Shown here in pieces: positions 4,516-56,470 of a DNA stretch of 64,000 nt (its first letter is position 1; each line of letters opens with the position of its first letter). The position numbers and the translations under genes are program-made. The notes below the pieces were generated by a model that did no database searches, was not told the origin of the DNA, and saw only the letters and a list, made by a program, of their open reading frames with translations. The stretch is taken from assembly GCA_024137785.1 (NCBI GenBank), contig JAHRHZ010000218.1, forward strand, positions 31,684,574 to 31,748,573. Reading direction: 5' to 3'. The DNA comes from Ginglymostoma cirratum (taxonomy: Eukaryota).

Positions 4516-4686
4516 TATTATAGGCTGTTCATTCATTCATGGTTGTCCCTCCCATCTTAGCTTCTTTAACAAACTCAAGAGTTTTGTTTCTCTCCCTAGT
4601 CGGCAAATAATTGAAAACCGGAATGGCTCCAGTAACTGATCACTGGATAAGGCACTCAACTAATTAACCAGGTCCTGTTTTACATG

Positions 4687-5329
4687 AGAGATAAAAGGTA
4701 CTGCAGATGCTGGAGAATCCGAGATAACAAGCATGGGGCTGGATGAACACAGCAGGTCAAGCAGCANNNNNNNNNNNNNNNNNNNNNNNNNNNNNNNNNN
4801 NNNNNNNNNNNNNNNNNNNNNNNNNNNNNNNNNNNNNNNNNNNNNNNNNNNNNNNNNNNNNNNNNNNNNNNNNNNNNNNNNNNNNNNNNNNNNNNNNNNN
4901 NNNNNNNNNNNNNNNNNNNNNNNNNNNNNNNNNNNNNNNNNNNNNNNNNNNNNNNNNNNNNNNNNNNNNNNNNNNNNNNNNNNNNNNNNNNNNNNNNNNN
5001 NNNNNNNNNNNNNNNNNNNNNNNNNNNNNNNNNNNNNNNNNNNNNNNNNNNNNNNNNNNNNNNNNNNNNNNNNNNNNNNNNNNNNNNNNNNNNNNNNNNN
5101 NNNNNNNNNNNNNNNNNNNNNNNNNNNNNNNNNNNNNNNNNNNNNNNNNNNNNNNNNNNNNNNNNNCTCTATCCATCCTCTATCCGCCTCCCCCTCTCTC
5201 CCTATTTATTTCAGAACCCTCTTCCCCTCCCCCATTTCTGATGAAGGGTTTAGGCCCGAAACGTCAAGTTTTCCTGCTCCTATGGTGCTGCTTGACCTGC
5301 TGTGTTCATCCAGCCCCATGCTTGTTATC
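4687..5329. mobile_element. PLE family-A foldback insertion spanning an assembly gap; intact hammerhead core at 5238-5265
   Basis: The inner part of the left arm (~4723-4766) is the reverse complement of the right end (~5286-5329). 5167-5329 matches the PLE tail at ~15385-15540. 13-bp TSD CCTGTTTTACATG at 4674-4686 and 5330-5342. Confidence 0.9.
4767..5166. other. Assembly gap (400 N)
   Basis: Run of N. Confidence 1.
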
Positions 5330-7050: not shown

Positions 7051-8570
7051 TAGGAATACAACTGATGGGGGAAGTATCTGCCTAAATGCTATACAATCAG
7101 CATTTGACATCTGGCATTTAACAAGGATCATTACTTGGCAAAAGATAAGTGACACATCTACGTGTGCACTCCCTACAGAAATATTCTGCAAAGAAATGGG
7201 CTAATCAACATTTGCGGAAGTTGGTGATAATACTGTTCCTCTCCCTTATCTTATTTCCCAGTTAGTCCTACAAAATTTTTTTTCTCACTGTGTCTCATCC
7301 TGGTTACACTCTGAGTCACATTCGGAGAGTGTGAATCCAGTAGATGTCCTTTACTACATTTAATCCTGAGAATGGCGAGGTGTCTCAGATGAAACATCTG
7401 CAAAATAAACCAGAAGGACTGAGTGGGGTGGTATTGTTTAGTCAGCAATCCCACACACAAGACCATTGAAGAAATGGTGACTGTGAAGTGCTTGGCAGAG
7501 ATTAAACAAGTAGAACAGTTGACAATAAATCCTAGGTAGAATTAGATTGACTACCACCTCTGGAGGGACATCCTTGCCAAGTTCATTGATTTTACAGTGC
7601 TATTTTGTGGTTCTGTTTCAATATAAGGAAGAACCTACTGTGACACATGACATAAGGCTACAGCATTGCATGCACCATTGTTTTGTTTCATTTTAAGATT
7701 ATTGGGTGAGGCCCATATGCTTTTCCTCTTGAGAGACTGGAGGTTCCAGTAATTAAACAACCAATGCATGCAATAAATGTTTGATTTTCTGTGTGAAGTT
7801 TTGATGAATGTTCTCCCCGGAATATGTTTCCTGTAGATTAGGTATCTGCAGAGTTCCCATGATTAAACTGGAGAAGCTGGCAAGTGGTCTGTGTTATATT
7901 AGACAAGAGGTTTTTTTTCCCTGCATTTAGCTGCATACAACCTACAAATTCATGTAAATGGGATGGAAGCCCTATACAAATTTCAAGTGGGGCAATGCAA
8001 ATTTAAAGCCAGCAGTACTGACTTACAGACCCCACAAAACACAATGGCTGCATCAGTGAGATATTCGTTGAATATCTGAACCTATGCTAAGAGGGTTACT
8101 GATATAACCATGTAGCATAGCATGAACCGTTACAGACCTTATGGTATTAAAAGGTAATAAAATGCAGTGTAACAGAATAGTTCAGCAATTAAAATTTTCA
8201 TCCTCATTTTCATTCTCTTGCCCTGTTCTTATCTCTGAGACTTTATTCAGTTCTGCAGTTTTGAAATTTCTATACTATATCTGTCCAATGTGGGTCTTTT
8301 GTACAAAGTGCCAACTTTGGCAGCCTTATCTTCAGCTGTTTGGGTCTTGAGCTTTCCTTGCAGTCTCTCCTCCATCAAGTTTCACGTGAAACTTAGCCTC
8401 TGCCCAAGCTTTTGGTCACCTGTCCAAATATTTCCTGATTTGACTTGTTGCCAAATTTTATCTGTTAGTGCAGCTGTTACAACATCAAAAGCACTATTTA
8501 AATGTAAGTTGTTGCATGTTTACATTCAGCTGTCCTAGTTTTGCTCATGCAGTATACATTGTTATGGTAT

Positions 8571-8613
8571 TCTTGCATCTGTCCTGATGAGTGCAAGATG
8601 AAAAGCTTTGGCA
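8571..8613 (+). ncRNA. Candidate minimal type-I hammerhead ribozyme, family D
   Basis: Stem I UGUC/GGCA, CUGAUGA at 8584-8590, stem II GU-GCAAG-AU, GAAA, palindromic AAGCUU stem III, predicted cut after U8609. A second copy lies at 56316-56357. Confidence 0.65.
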
Positions 8614-8914
8614 ACATGTTTTTACTTTCAGCAATAGAACATATATTATTTAAGAATGTAGCTAATTGGAGCCAGTTTTCAAAGGGCCTTTCTCCTGTAC
8701 TTCCAAAAGGAAAAATGAGAATTGTTAAATTTGATAAAGTCCTGCTTTTGTCTCCCAAACTGCACTGATTATACAAATGAAGGAAATTCCAGCAGCTCAG
8801 TGTTAACTGTGTAGTTTACAATGCTCCCCCTTCTTCAAAGTAGATGCTTTGGCTGTAAATATTAAATGCCTAACTAGAGCATTTAAATATCACTTCAAAA
8901 TTGTCATCGTCCCA

Positions 8915-12155: not shown

Positions 12156-14420
12156 ACAGCTTTTAGCCCAGGGCAGGTAAAACTACACCCATGGATATAA
12201 GATGCTGCCTTTCTGGAGCAAACATATTCAGTGTCACTGGTTCTTCCTCTCTGGAAGCCTTCTGTTTCCCTACTCGATGTCTGCTCCAGTAGAGTGACCA
12301 GCGCAACATGGGGAAATCTTAGCTTTAGTGTTTGTGTGGTCTGGCACCAGACACACTTTGGATCATTTGATACAGGATTCAGAATTATCCTCCTATTTTA
12401 CAAAAGAAGACACAGATTCAGGGTTTTTTTTCTGTCAGTGAAACATGGCATTGGTAAATTGATATCATTTTGTCTGTCTTTTACTGGCACCTGACCATAA
12501 GCTGCTGACAAGTGAATGAAATGTAATTGGGAACACTTAACGTGAATATACCATCAAAAATGCGTTCCGTAAGGCCGTGGTGTGAGAGAACCACAAATTG
12601 GTCAGCAGCTTATTGTCTGTGGGAGGCTATTTGAGGGCAGGTAAGGGAAGGAAACATGCCATTAATAAAGTGTCAAATGGAAACGTGCTAGAAATAATTA
12701 TCAATGTAGGATCAGCATGAATGTAATTACAGGTAATTGCACAGTGTAAAATCGTAGCAGGAAGAGATTAAAAATACAAAATAGTAGTGTGTTTGAAGAG
12801 AATATTTCTCAATTCCTGTTTTACTCCTAATATACAGAAGTGGCAGTTATTGTTTATGGGCATATGGCAAAAAGCTTTACTGGTGCCTGATCAACTTATC
12901 AGTTTCAATAATCTCACAGCAAATATCTGGTGCCAGCAAGTTACCAGCTGGCATCATTACAGCTGTACTGCCAGATCCACCAAACAATATCACTGTGTGT
13001 AGAAAGAATTGAGATATCTTAGTTGAACGTAGCTCGAAGATGTTGGCTGGTTATAAATGATTAGAAATTAGTGAACAGATTACTGACCTATTGTAACTTG
13101 CACAAAGGGTACAGAGGTCTGGGAATGTGTGATGGAAAGATGTGCTTTCTTCACAGCTTTTTTTTTGACAGCTTTGAATTAAATTGGCCTGGCCAAGTAA
13201 ACCAGACTGATACTGTCACTTCAAATTAATTACTGTATCTTTCTTGTTAAATTGAATGTGTAAGTGTGCATTTGAAGTAATAGGAGCTCCTCATAGGCAA
13301 CGCCCACAAAATCCAGCATTTTATTTTCGGGATAAACGACAGACAAACATGAAAGATAACAAATTCTATGGTTCTTAGCTGGAGTGTCTTTATTTTGGAG
13401 AAAGTAACTGCAAAGAATATTATTAGTGTGGATGTGGAAAATTTGGGTCTTTGATTACTGTCACAAAAATTAAAAAGAAACTCTTCAGGTCGACAATTCC
13501 AGATCATAAACTCTGTCTCCTGTTTTCTGAGATAGTAGCTATCAGTGGTAATTGCTGTTGCCATTTACACCTCCTCTATACCTATCATTTTGTTGCTTAT
13601 CTTGTACCATTATCATTCCTTTTGGCCAGGAAACAACATCCCTATTATCATATAAGCTATCTCACACCAGCCCCTTCCGCCCTCTGACATAATCAGGGAA
13701 GGTTATCTCATAGCTGGGAAACCATCATAGGGCCTGCCTTGCAATGAAGTGGGCTTGGCTGCCGTGTTTTCCATAGTGACTAGCTGTATTAATACAACCT
13801 GTGCCTCTCAATCAGTAATCCAGTAACATAACCATTCTGCTACTGCTCATATTAAATGATCACAAAAGCTAGGCACAGAAATTGGGGGTCCCAGGGCTGC
13901 CACTGGCCCTGTCCCCAGACCTATCCTGCTCCCCCCAACTCGAGTACAATGTTCCCCTCCTTTTAACCTGAGCACCATGCCCCCTTAGAGTCCTGTGCCA
14001 TTTATTAGGGCCTGATGTAGGCCCCTACTGTTCTGGGCCAAGAGAGGAGATTCCTGACAGTCTACAGATATTGGCGCCGCCTTGTACTCCCACGAGGAGC
14101 TCGAACAGTTCATCCACTTCACCAACACCTTCCACCCCAACCTGAAGTTCACCTGGACCATCTCCAACACTTCCTTTCCTGGACCTCTCTGTCTCCATCT
14201 CGGGTAACCACCTAGAAACCGATGTCCATTTCAAGCCCACTGACTCCCACAGCTACCTGGAATACACCTCCTCCCACCCACCTTCCTGTAAAAATGCCAT
14301 CCCCTATTCCCAATTCCTTCGCCTCCGCCGCATCTGCTCCCAGGATGAGGCATTCCACTCCCGCACATCTCAGATGTCCTCGTTCTTCAAGGACCACAAC
14401 ATCCCCCCCCCCCCCCCGCA

Positions 14421-15173
14421 GTGGTTGAGAATGCCCTCGACCGTGTCTCCCGCACTTCCCACAACTCATCCCACACACCCCGTCCCCGCAATAATAACCA
14501 AAAAAAAATCCCCCTCGTCCTCACGTACCACCCCACCAACCTCCGGATCCAACGCATCATCCTCCGACACTTCCACCATCTGCAATCCGACCCCACCACC
14601 AAAGACATTTTTCCCTCCCCATCCTTGTCTGCTTTCCGGAGGGACCACTCCCTCCACGACTCCCTTGTCCACTCCACACTCCCCTCCAGCCCCACCACAC
14701 CCAGCACTCTTCCCTGCAACTGCAGGAAGTGCTACACATGCCCCCACACCTCCTCCCTCACCCCAATCCCAGGCCCCAAGAAGACTTTCCACATCAAGCA
14801 GATGTTCACCTGCACATCTGCCAATGTGGTATACTGCATCCGCTGTACCCGTTGTGGCTTCCTCTACATCGGGGAAACCAAGCGGAGGCTTGGGGACCGC
14901 TTTGCAGAACACTTGTGCTCAGTTCGCAACAAACAACTGCACCTCCCAGTCGCGAACCATTTCAACTCCCCCTCCCATTCCTCAGACGACATTTCCATCC
15001 TGGGCCTCCTGCAATGCCACAGTGATGCCACCCGATGGCTGCAGGAACAGCAAATCATATTCAGCCTGGGAACCCTGCAGCCCAATGGTATCAATGTGGA
15101 TTTCACAAGCTTCAAAATCTCCCCTCCCCCAACCGCATCCCAAAACCAGCCCAGCTCGTCCCCGCCTCCCTAA
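14421..15173 (+). pseudogene. PLE ORF segment encoding the GIY-YIG endonuclease domain
   Basis: 250-aa open frame with the VVY(x10)YIG motif, conserved R and H residues and the C-terminal GIN. Confidence 0.9.
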
Positions 15174-15442
15174 CCTGTTCTTCCTCTCACCTATCCCCTC
15201 CTCCCACCTCACGCCGCACCCCCATCTCCTATCTACCAACCTCATCCTGCCCCCTTGACCTGTCCATCCTCCCTGGACTGACCTATCTCCTCCCTACCCT
15301 CCACCTACACTCACCTTTACTGGCTCCATCCCCGCCTCTTCGACTTGTCTGCCTCCTCTCCACCTATCCTCTCCTCCATCCATCTTCTATCCGCCTCCCC
15401 CTCCTCTCCCTATTTATTTTAGAACCCTCTTCCCCTCCCTCA

Positions 15443-15476
15443 TTTCTGATGAAGGGTCTAGGCCCGAAACGTCAAG
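15443..15476 (+). ncRNA. Minimal type-I hammerhead ribozyme in the PLE family-A tail
   Basis: UUU-CUGAUGA-A-GGGU(CUAG)GCCC-GAAA-CG-UC^AAG; palindromic ACGU stem III; predicted cut after C15473. Confidence 0.8.
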
Positions 15477-15857
15477 CTTTCCTGCTCCTATGATGCTGCT
15501 TGGCCTGCTGTGTTCATCCAGCCCCACACCTTGTTATCTTGGATTCTCCAGCATCTGCAGTACCTTTTATCTGTGATCATTATTAAATTTCTCCCAAAAT
15601 GCGCTCAAGAGCATTGGTGTTGAGCAAATGTTACAGGGCTTGTTAAAGTCACAGTGCATATATGGGAATAAGAGGTGAGAAATTGCCAGTGAATCCATCA
15701 AGCTGCCTCACCACACGATAGTTGGAGCCTAGAGTCATAGAGTTACGCAGCACAGATTGATGATTAAGTACTTCCTCAGTCACTCCCCCACCCCCACCAG
15801 CCTTTACCAAGCCTAGTCATATGATCTCGCAGAAGAAAAATTTAAAAAATAATGAGT

Positions 15858-29457: not shown

Positions 29458-29694
29458 CATAAACAAAGTTTCTGGGAAAGCTCAGCAGGTCTGTCAACAT
29501 CTGTGAAGGGAAAATCAGAGTTAACGTTTCGAGTCTGGTGACCCTTCCTCAGAACTGTTCTGAGGAAGGATCACCGGACCCCAAACGTTAACTCTGTTTT
29601 TTCCTTCACAGATGCTGACAGACCTGCTGAGCTTTTCCAGAAACTTTGTTTTTGTTCCTGATTTATAGCATCTGCAGTTCTTTTGGTGTTTAGT
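29458..29694. mobile_element. PLE family-B foldback with two divergent hammerhead cores and a 14-bp TSD
   Basis: Long inverted arms around CAGAACTGTTCTG (centre ~29556); TAGGAAAGTGGGTA at 29444-29457 and 29695-29708. Confidence 0.9.
29519..29556 (-). ncRNA. Minimal hammerhead ribozyme, family B (intact core)
   Basis: Minus strand reads AGUU-CUGAGGA-A-GGGUC(ACCA)GACUC-GAAA-CG-UU^AACU. Confidence 0.75.
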
Positions 29695-32111
29695 TAGGAA
29701 AGTGGGTAGGTTGGCAGGTGGGGCCAGATAGTGGTCAGGTTCTGGTTGGTGGAGAGGGGTCAGACTGTGGGAAGTTAGGGAGGTGACCAAGTGTCCAGAG
29801 AGGTAATCAGTGAATAGGGATGTAGCTGGGTTCAAGGATCTGATTGGAGCAGGGGAGGGGTGCGTTAACTGGATGCCAGTATTGTAGTTAGCCAGGTGAT
29901 GGGGTTTTTTTCTGACTAACATTTCCTGACAACAATTCAGGTAATTGTACTGGCTTTGGTCTCCCAGGCAGTGACTTTTGCACAAAAGTCCCAGAGATCT
30001 GGAGAATTGCTTGTTGGATGTTGAAAATTCCCTGGGAACTGCCATGTACTTCAGCTTGTTTGGGCTTTCACATGTCATGATGCAAATCTCTATTTGTACA
30101 TCAGGCCTCCATTGGTCCAGGGGCCTGAAGGTTTGGACCAATATGTTTAGACTGAAGCTATTTTCTAATCAATCTGCTCAGAATTATTACTACGCACCTC
30201 AATGACAGATGGGACTTGAACCTGGGCTTCCAGGTCAGAGACTGGGACACTACCACTGCAACACTAAAACCTTGTGTATGGATTGGATGCAGTGAGGGAG
30301 AATGCAGCCCTATGGTCTTCTAAGACTATGGTGGCTTTACCTTGTAAACCAAGTCAGAAATTACTTTCATCGAGGCTGGTAGAATTTAGAATGGCCCACC
30401 TCCTGAACGATTACAAACAGAGCTATAATTACATGCACAGCAGAATCATGTATTAAACTTGGAAAGATTGCAATAACAACAAAAGAAATGGCCTCAAGGT
30501 CATACTGAAGCTTGGCAATTGTACAGTTTTTAGAAATTACAGAAGATTTGTGTTAAATGGTTAAATAATAACACACTTGCTGTACGTTCGTTGATTTATT
30601 TGATAACCAGAAACTATGTTTACACCAATCATGAACAATGCAGGAAGTGAAACTTGAATTGTAATGATAAAACCAAGTTGTTACCAAATGCTTCAGCCAG
30701 CTTTAGGAAAAGAGAGATTACAGTAGGTTAGTTAAAATGAATGTCCTTTTATTAGGCAGTTGACTTTCACAATTACAGAAAATCCTATGGCAGATTGGCA
30801 GGATCATGCCATGGTCAACAGAAGTGGATACTATGAGGGTTATATCTGAACTAACTGCAGATGGACAGCCTTACATAGGATTCTGAAGCTCATTGCAAAG
30901 GTGATTGTATTTCTGTTTCTGGGGAGTGGGCAGTTCTGAGATCAGGTTCCTGCCAGTCAATTACTGCTTTCAGCCATAAGGGCATTGTAGCTCTTGGGAA
31001 TGGATTGGCATTTTTGCACCACTACTCACCCTAGGGAGTTAATGCCCTGACAATGCTATAGGGCACTGCCTTGTACCAAAATGGATCAGTCCCAAAAGGG
31101 GAGACGACTTTTCAGGTTTGTGAAAATTGAGGGCAATCACACGAATGCCACCAATGCAAGCTTTCAGTCGAAGATTGTTTTAACAGTCTGGTTGCAGCCT
31201 TATTGGCAAACTGCCATGTCATTGTTGAGTGTTTTGCAGGCTGCTAATAGACAGATAAATCTTCAAGGAGCTGTAGGGTGTTACAGTTGTGAATAAAATT
31301 AGATTGAATCCAGGCTCAGTCTCCTCGCTGCACCGCTAGGGGTTGATAGAGTAATGATGTCAGTTCACCGAGTGACAAGAGGGATTCGACTGGCTCTACC
31401 TTGAAATGAATGGCAGCTTGAACATCTGGCATGTATTCCAGCTCTGTGTGCAATGAGAGTCTCTACAGCAATACTCCTTAAAGAACAAATATTATCTGCT
31501 GAAGTTTAAGTATTGCTCTGAGAACCAGAAAGGGTGTCATTCAGACAAGGCTGGCGTCAGTAATTAAGCTGTCTCAGCTGGATGAACTGTTGCACACGTT
31601 ACACATGGATTGGGAATGAGTGAGCTTGGTCCTTTGTCAAGATGCATGAGAAAATGGAATCAGACATGTGATACCTTCGATACCAATTAAGGCGAGGTGA
31701 AACCCTGTACCATATCAGATTGCAATCTCATCTAATATGACTTCCTTCAACTTATGGTTTTAGTTTTTTTTAAGCAAGGCTGCGTCATCTCTGCAGCCTC
31801 CTCTTAATCCGAACTGAATAGCTCCTTTTTACAGAAATCTCAGGTGTAGACTCACTTCAGGTGAAATTCCTGACATTAAGGTTTTTTGGATGAGAGACAG
31901 ACGTAACTGAAGCCCTGTCTGTCTGTCCAGGATGAGGCCCACTTGGAGTGTTATGCCAAGTGTCCTGACCAATATTTACCTTCTTCGTCAATATCATAAA
32001 ACAACAGATTAATTAGTCATTACAAAGTGCCTGTTTGGGGGAGCTTGCTGTGCACAAATTAGCTGCCACACTTCCTATGTTAAAACGGTGACTACATTTT
32101 AAAAGGTACTT

Positions 32112-32637
32112 AGATAACACAGTATGGAGCTGGAGGAATACAGCAGGCCAGGCAGCATNNNNNNNNNNNNNNNNNNNNNNNNNNNNNNNNNNNNNNNNNN
32201 NNNNNNNNNNNNNNNNNNNNNNNNNNNNNNNNNNNNNNNNNNNNNNNNNNNNNNNNNNNNNNNNNNNNNNNNNNNNNNNNNNNNNNNNNNNNNNNNNNNN
32301 NNNNNNNNNNNNNNNNNNNNNNNNNNNNNNNNNNNNNNNNNNNNNNNNNNNNNNNNNNNNNNNNNNNNNNNNNNNNNNNNNNNNNNNNNNNNNNNNNNNN
32401 NNNNNNNNNNNNNNNNNNNNNNNNNNNNNNNNNNNNNNNNNNNNNNNNNNNNNNNNNNNNNNNNNNNNNNNNNNNNNNNNNNNNNNNNNNNNNNNNNNNN
32501 NNNNNNNNNNNNNNNNNNNNNNNNNNNNNNNNNNNNNNNNNNNNNNNNNNNNNNNNNNATGCTGCCTGGCCTGCTGTATTCCTCCAGCTCCATACTGTGT
32601 TATCTCTGACTCCAGCATCGGCAGTTCTTGCTATCTC
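32112..32637. mobile_element. PLE family-A-type foldback insertion spanning an assembly gap, 15-bp TSD
   Basis: Perfect 47-bp inverted repeat at 32112-32158 and 32559-32605; TTTTAAAAGGTACTT at 32097-32111 and 32638-32652. Confidence 0.9.
32159..32558. other. Assembly gap (400 N)
   Basis: Run of N. Confidence 1.
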
Positions 32638-33024
32638 TTTTAAAAGGTACTTCACAGGTTGTAAAGAAATTCAAGACACTGGATGTTTGTGAAAAGCACG
32701 ACATAACTTCAAATCTTTCTTCCTTTGTGCCATTAATGAAAAAGTAAACAGATCACTGGCAAAATAGGAGATCCAGATTTGCAACTGAATCTTTTGTTCT
32801 TAAAATCAAAGGAGGAAATGTCACCCACCAATTCATACTGGTCAACTTCTCTGCTGTACATAAGTCCAGTGTAGTGCTCAGCTATTTCCTGATTCTCCCT
32901 TGTTGTATCCAGGAAAAACTAAAGATTCCAGTGCTGCAGCAGTAGTATCCCTGTCTCTGAGCCAGGAGGCCAAGGTTCAGATCCCGTGAGCCATTGCAAA
33001 GGACAATGGCAGCTAATGCATGTG

Positions 33025-55040: not shown

Positions 55041-55464
55041 TTTGCAGTAGCAGCATAGTGATAGTGCTGAACCCAGTCTGTGTTTGCAAGCTTCAGAACA
55101 GTATGTCCACCAATATATGTGATTTTGCTATCAGACATCATTTATAAAATATTCCAGAATGTGCTAAGAATAATACCAGAAAAGAGTTTAAGATTATCAG
55201 TCATGTTCACAACATAATGCATTTACATTTGCTAGAAGTTATGTATATTATCCCACAGGACCCTTTTTTATGAAGTCAAAAGTTACATACCTTTTTCATT
55301 GGAAAACAAAAAGAACTAATGCTAAATCTCTGTTGCATTCCTGTGGCAACACCCTAATTAATCAGTCTACCTGCCTGGTCTGAGAATTTAGATTGACAGT
55401 TAATTGTTGCTGCTGTATCTCCCTGTTAACGACAGCCCAACAAATCAGTCATGATGTGGAGGTG

Positions 55465-56282
55465 CCCCGTGTGCGCGCACACACTCTTTCACTGTCTCTC
55501 ACTCACTCAATCACTCCCTCTCTGTCTTCCCCCCCACCACACACATGCCCGCACTCTCTCCCTCTCACACGTGCACACTTTGTCTCCCCCCCCAATCTCT
55601 CTCCTCTCTCTCTCTCTCTCCACTCTCACACTCACATTCTCTCTGTCTCTTTCTCACCCCTCACACACAAACATTTGAATCTATGGGGTGAACTTGTATT
55701 TGCAGAAACATTCTAGTTTGTTCAAAAAGCATGCAATTTGTAGACAGTCAGTCAATGTGGCATTTTGTAAATTCCTATTTTAGAACCCGTTTGTGTTTTG
55801 GTTTGGAGTCAGACAGTTTCTATTTCTAAACAAGGCCTCACACCTAACATGAGATAACAAGGTGTAGAGCTGGATGAACACAGCAGGCCAAGCAGCATCA
55901 GAGGAGCAGGAAAGCTGACATTTCGGGTCTGGATCCTTCTTCAGAAAAACCTAACGTATTGTCTGACCTAAAATATCACCTTTTCTTTATACTGATAAAA
56001 CTTTTCATTCTCTCAGGACAGCGACTTGTAAGGAATTCAGGGATTTACATATACATATTAATCAATTAAAACCTTCTAATCGATTGAAGATTTAACAGTA
56101 CCTCAGGTTTGTTTAATACATCCTGATCAGTGGTGTGACCCTTTGATTTTTTACTTATAAATTGTATGTCTGATACTATGTGTTGCACTAATGCCTGATG
56201 GAGGAGTGAAGCTCTGAAAGCTTGTGTTTTCAAATAAACCTGTTGGACTATAACTTGGTGTTGTGAGATTTCCGATCTTGTT
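55465..56282 (+). mobile_element. Putative PLE family-C 3' region (CT/CA-rich tract plus tail with a decayed hammerhead at 56195-56223)
   Basis: Low-complexity 55470-55670, then CTGATGGAGGAGTGAAGCTCTGAAAGCTT followed by AAATAAACCTGTTGGACTATAA. The PLE assignment is inferred from the hammerhead architecture; no ORF is seen. Confidence 0.55.
55851..55948 (-). mobile_element. Solo PLE family-A tail nested in the family-C region
   Basis: Minus strand TTCTGAAGAAGGATCCAGACCCGAAATGTC..TTGTTATCTC; ACCTAAC at 55842-55848 and 55949-55955. Confidence 0.88.
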
Positions 56283-56315
56283 AACAAATTAGTGACATAT
56301 TTTTCCAAGTCTGTT

Positions 56316-56357
56316 TCTTGCATCCTAGTTCTGATGAGTGTTAGCATGAAAAGCTTA
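56316..56357 (+). ncRNA. Second family-D hammerhead-like motif (partly decayed)
   Basis: TCTTGCAT..CTGATGA-GTG(TTAG)CAT-GAAA-AGCTTA. Confidence 0.5.
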
Positions 56358-56470
56358 ATTTCTTGTCTCTTTTTTAGCAAAATAAGTTCTTTACTGCAAG
56401 TAATTATTCTTGGATTCTGTGCCAAAAGCAGGAAGTATGCATATTTTTCAATCTACTCTGATCTTTTCTG

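Follow-up and report, generated by a model that had tools for sequence, protein, structure and literature searches.

A fossil Penelope-like terminal repeat in Ginglymostoma cirratum carries a hammerhead motif with a 2-bp stem II and a candidate tail/loop pseudoknot

We characterized a hammerhead motif in a 64,000-nucleotide stretch of Ginglymostoma cirratum DNA (the window), together with the repeat family to which it belongs. The motif lies in a short insertion that is the end of an extinct Penelope-like element (PLE), a 5′-truncated fragment of the element's terminal repeat (pLTR); the subfamily A profile that recognizes it was built without the window copy. An earlier sequence-only reading had described an orphan hammerhead with a complete core, a 4-bp stem I, a tiny stem II, a palindromic AAGCUU and an 8-nt upstream complement. 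This anatomy read back as described, whereas the motif is no orphan, as it belongs to a large repeat family. The features are collected in Table 1.

Table 1. Features of the two family copies in the window (positions of the window; + strand throughout)
Position	Strand	Feature	Evidence
8540..8636	+	Copy 1: 5′-truncated pLTR fragment of a Penelope-like element, subfamily A, whole insertion	Subfamily A profile match, E 8e-31
8553..8559	+	Decayed TATA-like box, one substitution	Alignment; putative promoter role
8571..8577	+	5′ tail, 7-nt complement of 8592-8598	Sequence; predicted at transcript start
8580..8583	+	Stem I, 5′ strand	Sequence; two-sided change between subfamilies A/B and C
8584..8590	+	Catalytic core CUGAUGA; contains an AUG that is out of the ORF frame in most A/B copies	
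8591..8599	+	2-bp stem II and 5-nt loop; 8599 (position 11.1) is U, a CpG-decay position	
8600..8609	+	GAAA core, 6-nt palindrome 8603-8608 and cleavage position 8609 (U, a CpG-decay position)	
8610..8613	+	Stem I, 3′ strand	Sequence, subfamily comparison
8616..8636	+	Start codon and first seven codons of the RT-endonuclease ORF; 7 nt past the predicted cut	
55046..55448	+	Copy 2: subfamily C element, GIY-YIG endonuclease C-terminus remnant and 3′ UTR	Profile E 1e-34; tblastn E 9e-8
56284..56410	+	Copy 2 continued: TATA region, tail, hammerhead (core 56331), ORF start	

Direct reading of the window gave both halves of the core, CUGAUGA and GAAA (8600-8603). One of the four stem I pairs is G-U, stem II consists of a G8591-U8599 wobble and U8592-A8598, and the cleavage triplet is UUU, with position 17 at 8609. 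By sequence, the motif has the C3-A9, G12-A15.1, U16.1 and H17 of a type I hammerhead core. Stem III is possible in trans only, the AAGCUU palindrome giving a duplex of -4.3 kcal/mol by computation. The tail at 8571-8578 complements 8591-8598 with seven Watson-Crick pairs and one G-U; since three of these eight pairs occupy stem II bases, the full 8-bp helix and stem II are mutually exclusive, while five to seven tail pairs are compatible with a G10.1-C11.1 pair. Rfam returned no match at the gathering score in the window, and unrelated weak matches alone at 8450-8750.

The second copy that the sequence-only reading had placed at 56316 is real: a pattern joining tail and core matched twice in the window (8571 and 56316), as compared with 0.00 matches in 100 shuffles. 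Its two pieces are colinear in the subfamily C profile (positions 48-201, then 221-348); a repeat-rich stretch of about 835 nt separates them. This intervening segment, 55449-56283, is a nested insertion within copy 2 and contains, besides low-complexity sequence, the ends of two or more other repeats that bear hammerheads and lie on opposite strands. Loop II of this copy is altered and no longer complementary to the tail.

The window also contains other relics of this kind. A second PLE relic, GC-rich and with a 370-aa open frame, occupies 14094-15580 (+); its matches to the RT thumb and the endonuclease, at 14170-14987, are weak (E 2e-6 to 9e-6), and they are followed by an ordinary long-stem-II hammerhead core at 15446-15469 (+). 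Other long-stem-II hammerhead-like cores lie at 184-207, 5238-5261 and 56195-56222 (+) and at 29527-29552 and 55921-55944 (-). The repeats that bear these cores and the core at 15446-15469 match one another, and at E 1e-3 blastn linked none of them to the present family. The regions 4660-5240 and 32092-32690, which are open in many frames inside PLE-end repeats and have no Pfam match, are apparently tandem or low-complexity expansions. The 140 longest of 310 unmasked frames gave no Pfam match, and no host exon was found.

We searched 4.36 Gb of genome for the core. The exact pattern matched 369 times against none for its control, and a looser pattern had 704 exact matches against 3, confirming the proposal that the motif is repeated. 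None of 55 copies selected by their endonuclease sequence matched even the looser pattern, from which we infer a copy total likely of the order of ten thousand; the family is thus likely one of thousands of decayed copies. From this genome, 156 copies were compared, and they fall into three subfamilies. Aligned copies share a common 3′ end and start at variable 5′ positions. Of 56 core-centered loci, 16 have an inverted piece no more than 600 nt upstream, and two loci (L065 and L077) are partial tandems. A core pattern that retained the CpGs had nine matches, none of them with both CpGs, and so yielded no young copy.

The longer copies reveal the parent element. Decayed GIY-YIG codons lie upstream of them; the peptide from one locus had 149 matches among the 150 scored of 4484 candidates, and all 89 loci selected by endonuclease matched the family DNA profile, 55 of them continuing into the hammerhead on the same strand. 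The relatives are proteins of about 840 aa containing RVT_1 (E 1e-8 to 5e-12) and GIY-YIG (E 1e-4 to 7e-3, just below the Pfam cut-off), and the family loci match their N-terminus, RT, thumb and endonuclease (EN). The element therefore has the single ORF of EN+ PLEs, with the RT followed by a C-terminal GIY-YIG endonuclease. It shares further PLE traits in its 5′ truncation and its 3′-terminal pLTR, in which the start of the ORF recurs, as well as in the inverted 5′-truncated neighbor copies and partial tandems, which occur in the family and are absent at the window copy.

The final 50-60 nt of the repeat encode the N-terminus of the relatives' proteins: in the 156 copies, read in three frames, an N-terminus profile had 44 matches against 3 for its reversed control. 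In four of five loci located with a relative's N-terminus, the pLTR and hammerhead stand directly upstream of the RT-endonuclease ORF, which identifies the segment at 8616-8636 as the first seven codons of that ORF. Had full-length copies failed to join ORF and hammerhead, a PLE origin would have been refuted; they do join. Thus, the suggestion of an old PLE relic holds, by the endonuclease remnants upstream, the 55 of 89 loci and the four of five loci, whereas the statement that no ORF is nearby does not, as copy 1 ends in a start codon and first codons and copy 2 retains an endonuclease remnant. The alternative suggestion of a retrozyme is not needed, the copies being 5′-truncated pieces of an ORF-bearing element. 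A non-LTR retrozyme would be an ORF-less tandem array of hammerhead repeats; the family copies instead run colinear with what is left of an ORF, and the loci examined showed no tandem array.

The ORF start itself is variably preserved. Copies with an ATG at the offset of 7 nt past the cut number 16 of 36 in A, 22 of 58 in B and 1 of 30 in C. Across the T-run the frame is noisy: the modal offset occurs in 9 of 21 copies of A and in 9 of 33 of B. In subfamily C, where 3 of 14 copies have the modal offset (again noisy), the AUG in the core is perhaps in frame, as also at locus L303. No intact copy was seen among the loci examined, including the best 150 matches to the thumb-endonuclease region of the relative P0004, nearly all of which contain stops. 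At one further locus, L304, a long ORF remnant (residues about 1-510 of the relatives) lacks its own pLTR, and an inverted 3′ end of the same family stands in its place.

We parsed 63 full-length relatives and scored 46 of them for clade motifs. The CX2-5CxxC linker was found in none of the 46, the CxC..H..H (CCHH) motif of the EN in 40 and DKG in all 46. Lack of this linker, the CCHH motif in the EN and the DKG motif are given in PMC8557442 as Penelope/Poseidon features. These motifs point to an element of the Penelope/Poseidon type, an assignment made by elimination; the protein searches returned no named PLE.

Upstream of the tail, the family alignment has two CCAAT boxes and a TATA box, the latter 45-47 nt ahead of the core. 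Transcription typically starts about 30 nt after a TATA box. The tail lies about 30 nt past the TATA-like box in the family, so that the RNA would start 1-3 nt before it. In the window copy, a 15-nt deletion after the box shortens this distance.

We then considered how far the window copy has decayed. Three column pairs of the alignment split into C/T followed by G/A, the signature of CpG decay: the tail end, positions 11.1-12 (T31/C14 then G27/A16) and positions 17-1.1 (T33/C17 then G31/A23), the latter two counted in 55 copies. These columns indicate that in the active family stem II was likely closed by G-C and the cut site likely read UUC; at 11.1 and at 17 the window copy has U. To compare the parts of the motif we used a ribozyme-blind sample, 89 copies anchored by the upstream UTR alone. 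Core identity was 0.838 against a background of 0.806 (P 0.07), the tail was weakly above background (0.847 against 0.788, P 0.04), loop II was not higher (0.75 against 0.77), and all 11 core letters were kept in 7 of the 89 copies. Against downstream and spacer backgrounds all parts scored higher, those regions being truncated or variable between subfamilies. An apparent core excess in a biased sample chosen by the ribozyme profile (0.877 against 0.794, P 2.5e-4) was mostly gone under ribozyme-blind anchoring. The family copies thus decay about neutrally.

An orthologue of the window copy was present in one other organism (organism A, three studies). Its flanks differ at 10 of 315 and 12 of 283 positions, and the repeat at about, or up to, 6 of the 93 positions 8545-8637, a figure obtained by subtraction because paralogues hide the exact sites; divergence is about 6.5% inside the repeat, on the same basis, against 3.7% in the flanks. 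In organisms C, D and E the repeat is present, and most flanks are without cover, so that they are uninformative on synteny. The proposed check of synteny thus found one orthologue, no more conserved than its flanks, and the hallmark of the C10/RECK type, conservation of a single locus above its flanks, is absent.

These results bear on the suggestion that the copy was exapted, the host having taken it over as a functional ribozyme in the manner of the amniote hammerheads in introns. That it keeps all core letters, as do few unselected copies, and that it has an orthologue at all would fit this idea. At least 704 copies have an intact core, however, so that one intact somewhere is expected, and this one was picked for being so; the core is at best slightly above background in the family, positions 11.1 and 17 and the TATA box are damaged, the repeat has changed no less than its flanks (22 of 598 positions in all), the window offers no partner within 47 kb, and Rfam gives no hammerhead match. 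We therefore regard co-option as highly improbable. Neither an inverted partner, suspected at 8400-8470, nor a target-site duplication was found for the insertion, and the nearest partner copy in the window is no closer than 47 kb. As a solo copy with its partner at least that far off in the window, it likely does not cut. The window copy is a dead terminal-repeat fragment, today likely without function, and matters solely as one sample of its family.

Whether the tail pairs with loop II was addressed by comparing the subfamilies, which a mixture model on the 156 copies resolved into 43 (A), 80 (B) and 33 (C) members. Stem I covaries by a two-sided change at its pair -4/+29: most A copies (23 of 30) and B copies (35 of 46) have U-A there, and most C copies (16 of 22) have A-U. 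A C-specific pattern supplied 23 of the 33 C copies; the 3′ base of this pair was not part of that pattern. The tail word, stem-loop II, core and palindrome are identical in the three subfamily majorities, whereas the TATA-to-tail spacer, the linker and outer stem I differ, the tail ending 7, 8 or 9 nt before the core according to subfamily. The tail ends in A or G, either of which can pair with U, and seven tail/loop pairs are common to all three subfamilies. Among 15-nt background stretches, 1.3% contain a 7-nt complement, or 0.2% with Watson-Crick pairs only, a post hoc figure. The covariation that had been proposed as a check did not appear: no tail/loop pair shows a two-sided change between the three subfamilies, and among decayed copies compensations were not enriched (1 against 3.2 in shuffles, 420 cells). 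With a conserved complement and no two-sided covariation, a tail/loop-II pseudoknot in the family hammerhead is a plausible candidate structure.

Searches for more distant relatives do not bear on this question, since the hammerheads they gave have long stems II. A second genome scan returned 31 PLE loci with credible hammerheads in nine, all of this kind, and a metagenome scan returned one distant locus with an ordinary minimal hammerhead; viral scans and a first genome scan for related loci found none. The core pattern occurred in 85 distinct contexts in viral contigs, which we read as chance matches in coding sequence. The 31 loci of the second genome scan (L306-L336) are contigs in bacterial or archaeal genome bins that encode relatives of the PLE RT, nine of them with pLTR-type hammerheads; they are likely animal-host DNA in the bins.

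Given the PLE origin, we judge it slightly more likely than not that the pairing is an activating contact; inhibition and coincidence divide the remaining probability. In the inhibitory case the tail/loop-II helix would be a hairpin that ties up stem II, together with part of the core in subfamily A, keeping the RNA uncut until a partner copy or an element protein refolds it. Both the window copy and each of the three subfamily majorities have the tail/loop hairpin as their minimum-energy fold (-8.2 kcal/mol as a monomer, against +0.8 for stems I and II), and in A and C the hairpin can extend by an eighth pair onto G10.1. Insertions derive from uncut RNA, and an Anolis PLE ribozyme is described as cutting solely with protein present (PMC11167929). 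Against this, the folding program models neither pseudoknots nor dimers, the window fold is no stabler than shuffles (z 0.38), and in B the seven common pairs stop exactly at G10.1-C11.1, as those of an activating contact would. An inhibitory hairpin seems to us unlikely.

The complement might instead be functionless, the tail serving as an initiator or 5′-end sequence and the loop being kept by descent or by coding constraint. The tail's place about 30 nt past a TATA-like box would suit an initiator, only three subfamilies were seen and these are related, and the core AUG may be in frame in C, as noted above; moreover, viral type I hammerheads with a short helix II and no loop contacts exist (PMC13725137). 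What speaks for more than coincidence is the low background rate of such matches and the constancy of the tail next to bases just 5′ of it that vary between subfamilies. That coding constraint by itself keeps loop II invariant is a weak explanation, since most A/B copies have the core AUG out of frame. We consider a functionless complement unlikely.

We therefore favor the reading, with moderate confidence, that window 8540-8636 is a dead pLTR fragment whose hammerhead likely worked solely in the active ancestor, as a dimer, with the tail probably steadying the 2-bp stem II. For the family as such, the RT-GIY-YIG ORF, the order promoter-like boxes, tail, hammerhead and start codon, the three subfamilies and the decay are established. 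In a tandem element, the CCAAT/TATA promoter of the repeat would start the RNA 1-3 nt before the tail, and the 5′ hammerhead could pair through the AAGCUU palindromes with a 3′ hammerhead reached by read-through, the tail helix stacking on the short stem II. The cut would fall 7 nt ahead of the start codon and strip the cap together with the upstream AUG inside the core. Since the 3′ ends of insertions lie some 50-60 nt beyond the cut site, their RNA template would have been uncut at the 3′ hammerhead, as is reported for the Anolis element PAc (PMC11167929). A bolder form, which we think quite unlikely, makes the dimeric hammerhead, its stem II completed by the pseudoknot at the transcript start, a translation switch that removes the cap and the out-of-frame core AUG; the cut would leave a 5′-OH RNA beginning 6 nt before the true start codon, and some ribozymes in fungal virus UTRs may be a parallel.

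What role hammerheads play in Penelope-like elements has yet to be settled. In vitro their cleavage is poor, and in the one reconstituted system insertion did not require them (PMC4209133, PMC11167929), and unprocessed RNA is the main PLE template (PMC11167929). If the favored reading is true, a base-paired contact and a cut 7 nt before a start codon would permit a clean mutational test both of activation and of a role in translation.

Dimeric hammerheads in PLE pLTRs are known (PMC4209133, PMC6765202), and an inverted partner near the insertion is part of the described PLE layout (PMC8557442). The pLTR hammerheads of Cervera and de la Pena 2014 (PMC4209133) share with the family their type I topology, location in the pLTR, 4-5-bp stem I, G10.1-C11.1 pair and a palindromic stem III implying dimers, and they likewise occur mostly as solo copies of truncated elements with inverted pairs nearby. 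Minimal PLE hammerheads are described as having a long helix II, an extra base between positions 9 and 10.1 and no tertiary contacts (PMC4209133, PMC6155905), whereas the family has a 2-bp stem II, no such extra base and a 7-nt tail complementary to the loop; the shortest stem II in the hammerhead table of PMC8557442 is 3 bp. The family also differs from Drosophila Penelope, whose promoter is TATA-less (PMC2377424).

In Anolis, the Poseidon element PAc (Frangieh et al. 2024, PMC11167929) resembles the family in having its hammerhead at the pLTR-ORF junction and insertions that reach past the cut into the ORF start. The PAc ORF begins at stem II, upstream of the cut, while that of A and B begins 7 nt after it. 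Animal non-LTR retrozymes (bioRxiv 10.64898/2026.07.22.740005) likewise have a type I hammerhead from PLE pLTRs and common solo copies; they are ORF-less tandem repeats, whereas the family copies derive by truncation from an element with an ORF. A similarly short helix II, of 1-2 bp, occurs in the type I hammerheads that chryso- and fusariviruses have in their 5′ UTRs (PMC13725137), and the cut of one of these precedes a start codon by 7 nt, as in the family. The viral hammerheads have a long monomeric helix III, with no loop contacts reported; the likeness noted is one of architecture.

The closest precedent for the contact is the set of pseudoknotted hammerheads of Perreault et al. 2011 (PMC3088659), including the human C10 intronic one, which have a short stem II and a Watson-Crick contact from the stem I side to the stem II side, as in the family. 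About 40% of that set is predicted to use such a contact, and one ribozyme with a 1-bp stem II depends on a 6-bp pseudoknot. The contacts there were tested by mutation or truncation, whereas that of the family is predicted; unlike those cases, the family hammerhead needs a dimer for stem III and shows no single-locus conservation. Supplement searches for the motif gave no hammerhead of this kind, and we found no PLE hammerhead combining a 2-bp stem II with a tail/loop pseudoknot in the literature searched, which did not extend to Lunse et al. on small PLE variants, where one may be described. Thus, hammerheads in Penelope repeats and pseudoknotted hammerheads are each already known, and it is their combination with a 2-bp stem II that we did not find in that literature. 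The window copy is an ordinary fossil of a known class that carries a structural variant of the PLE hammerhead.
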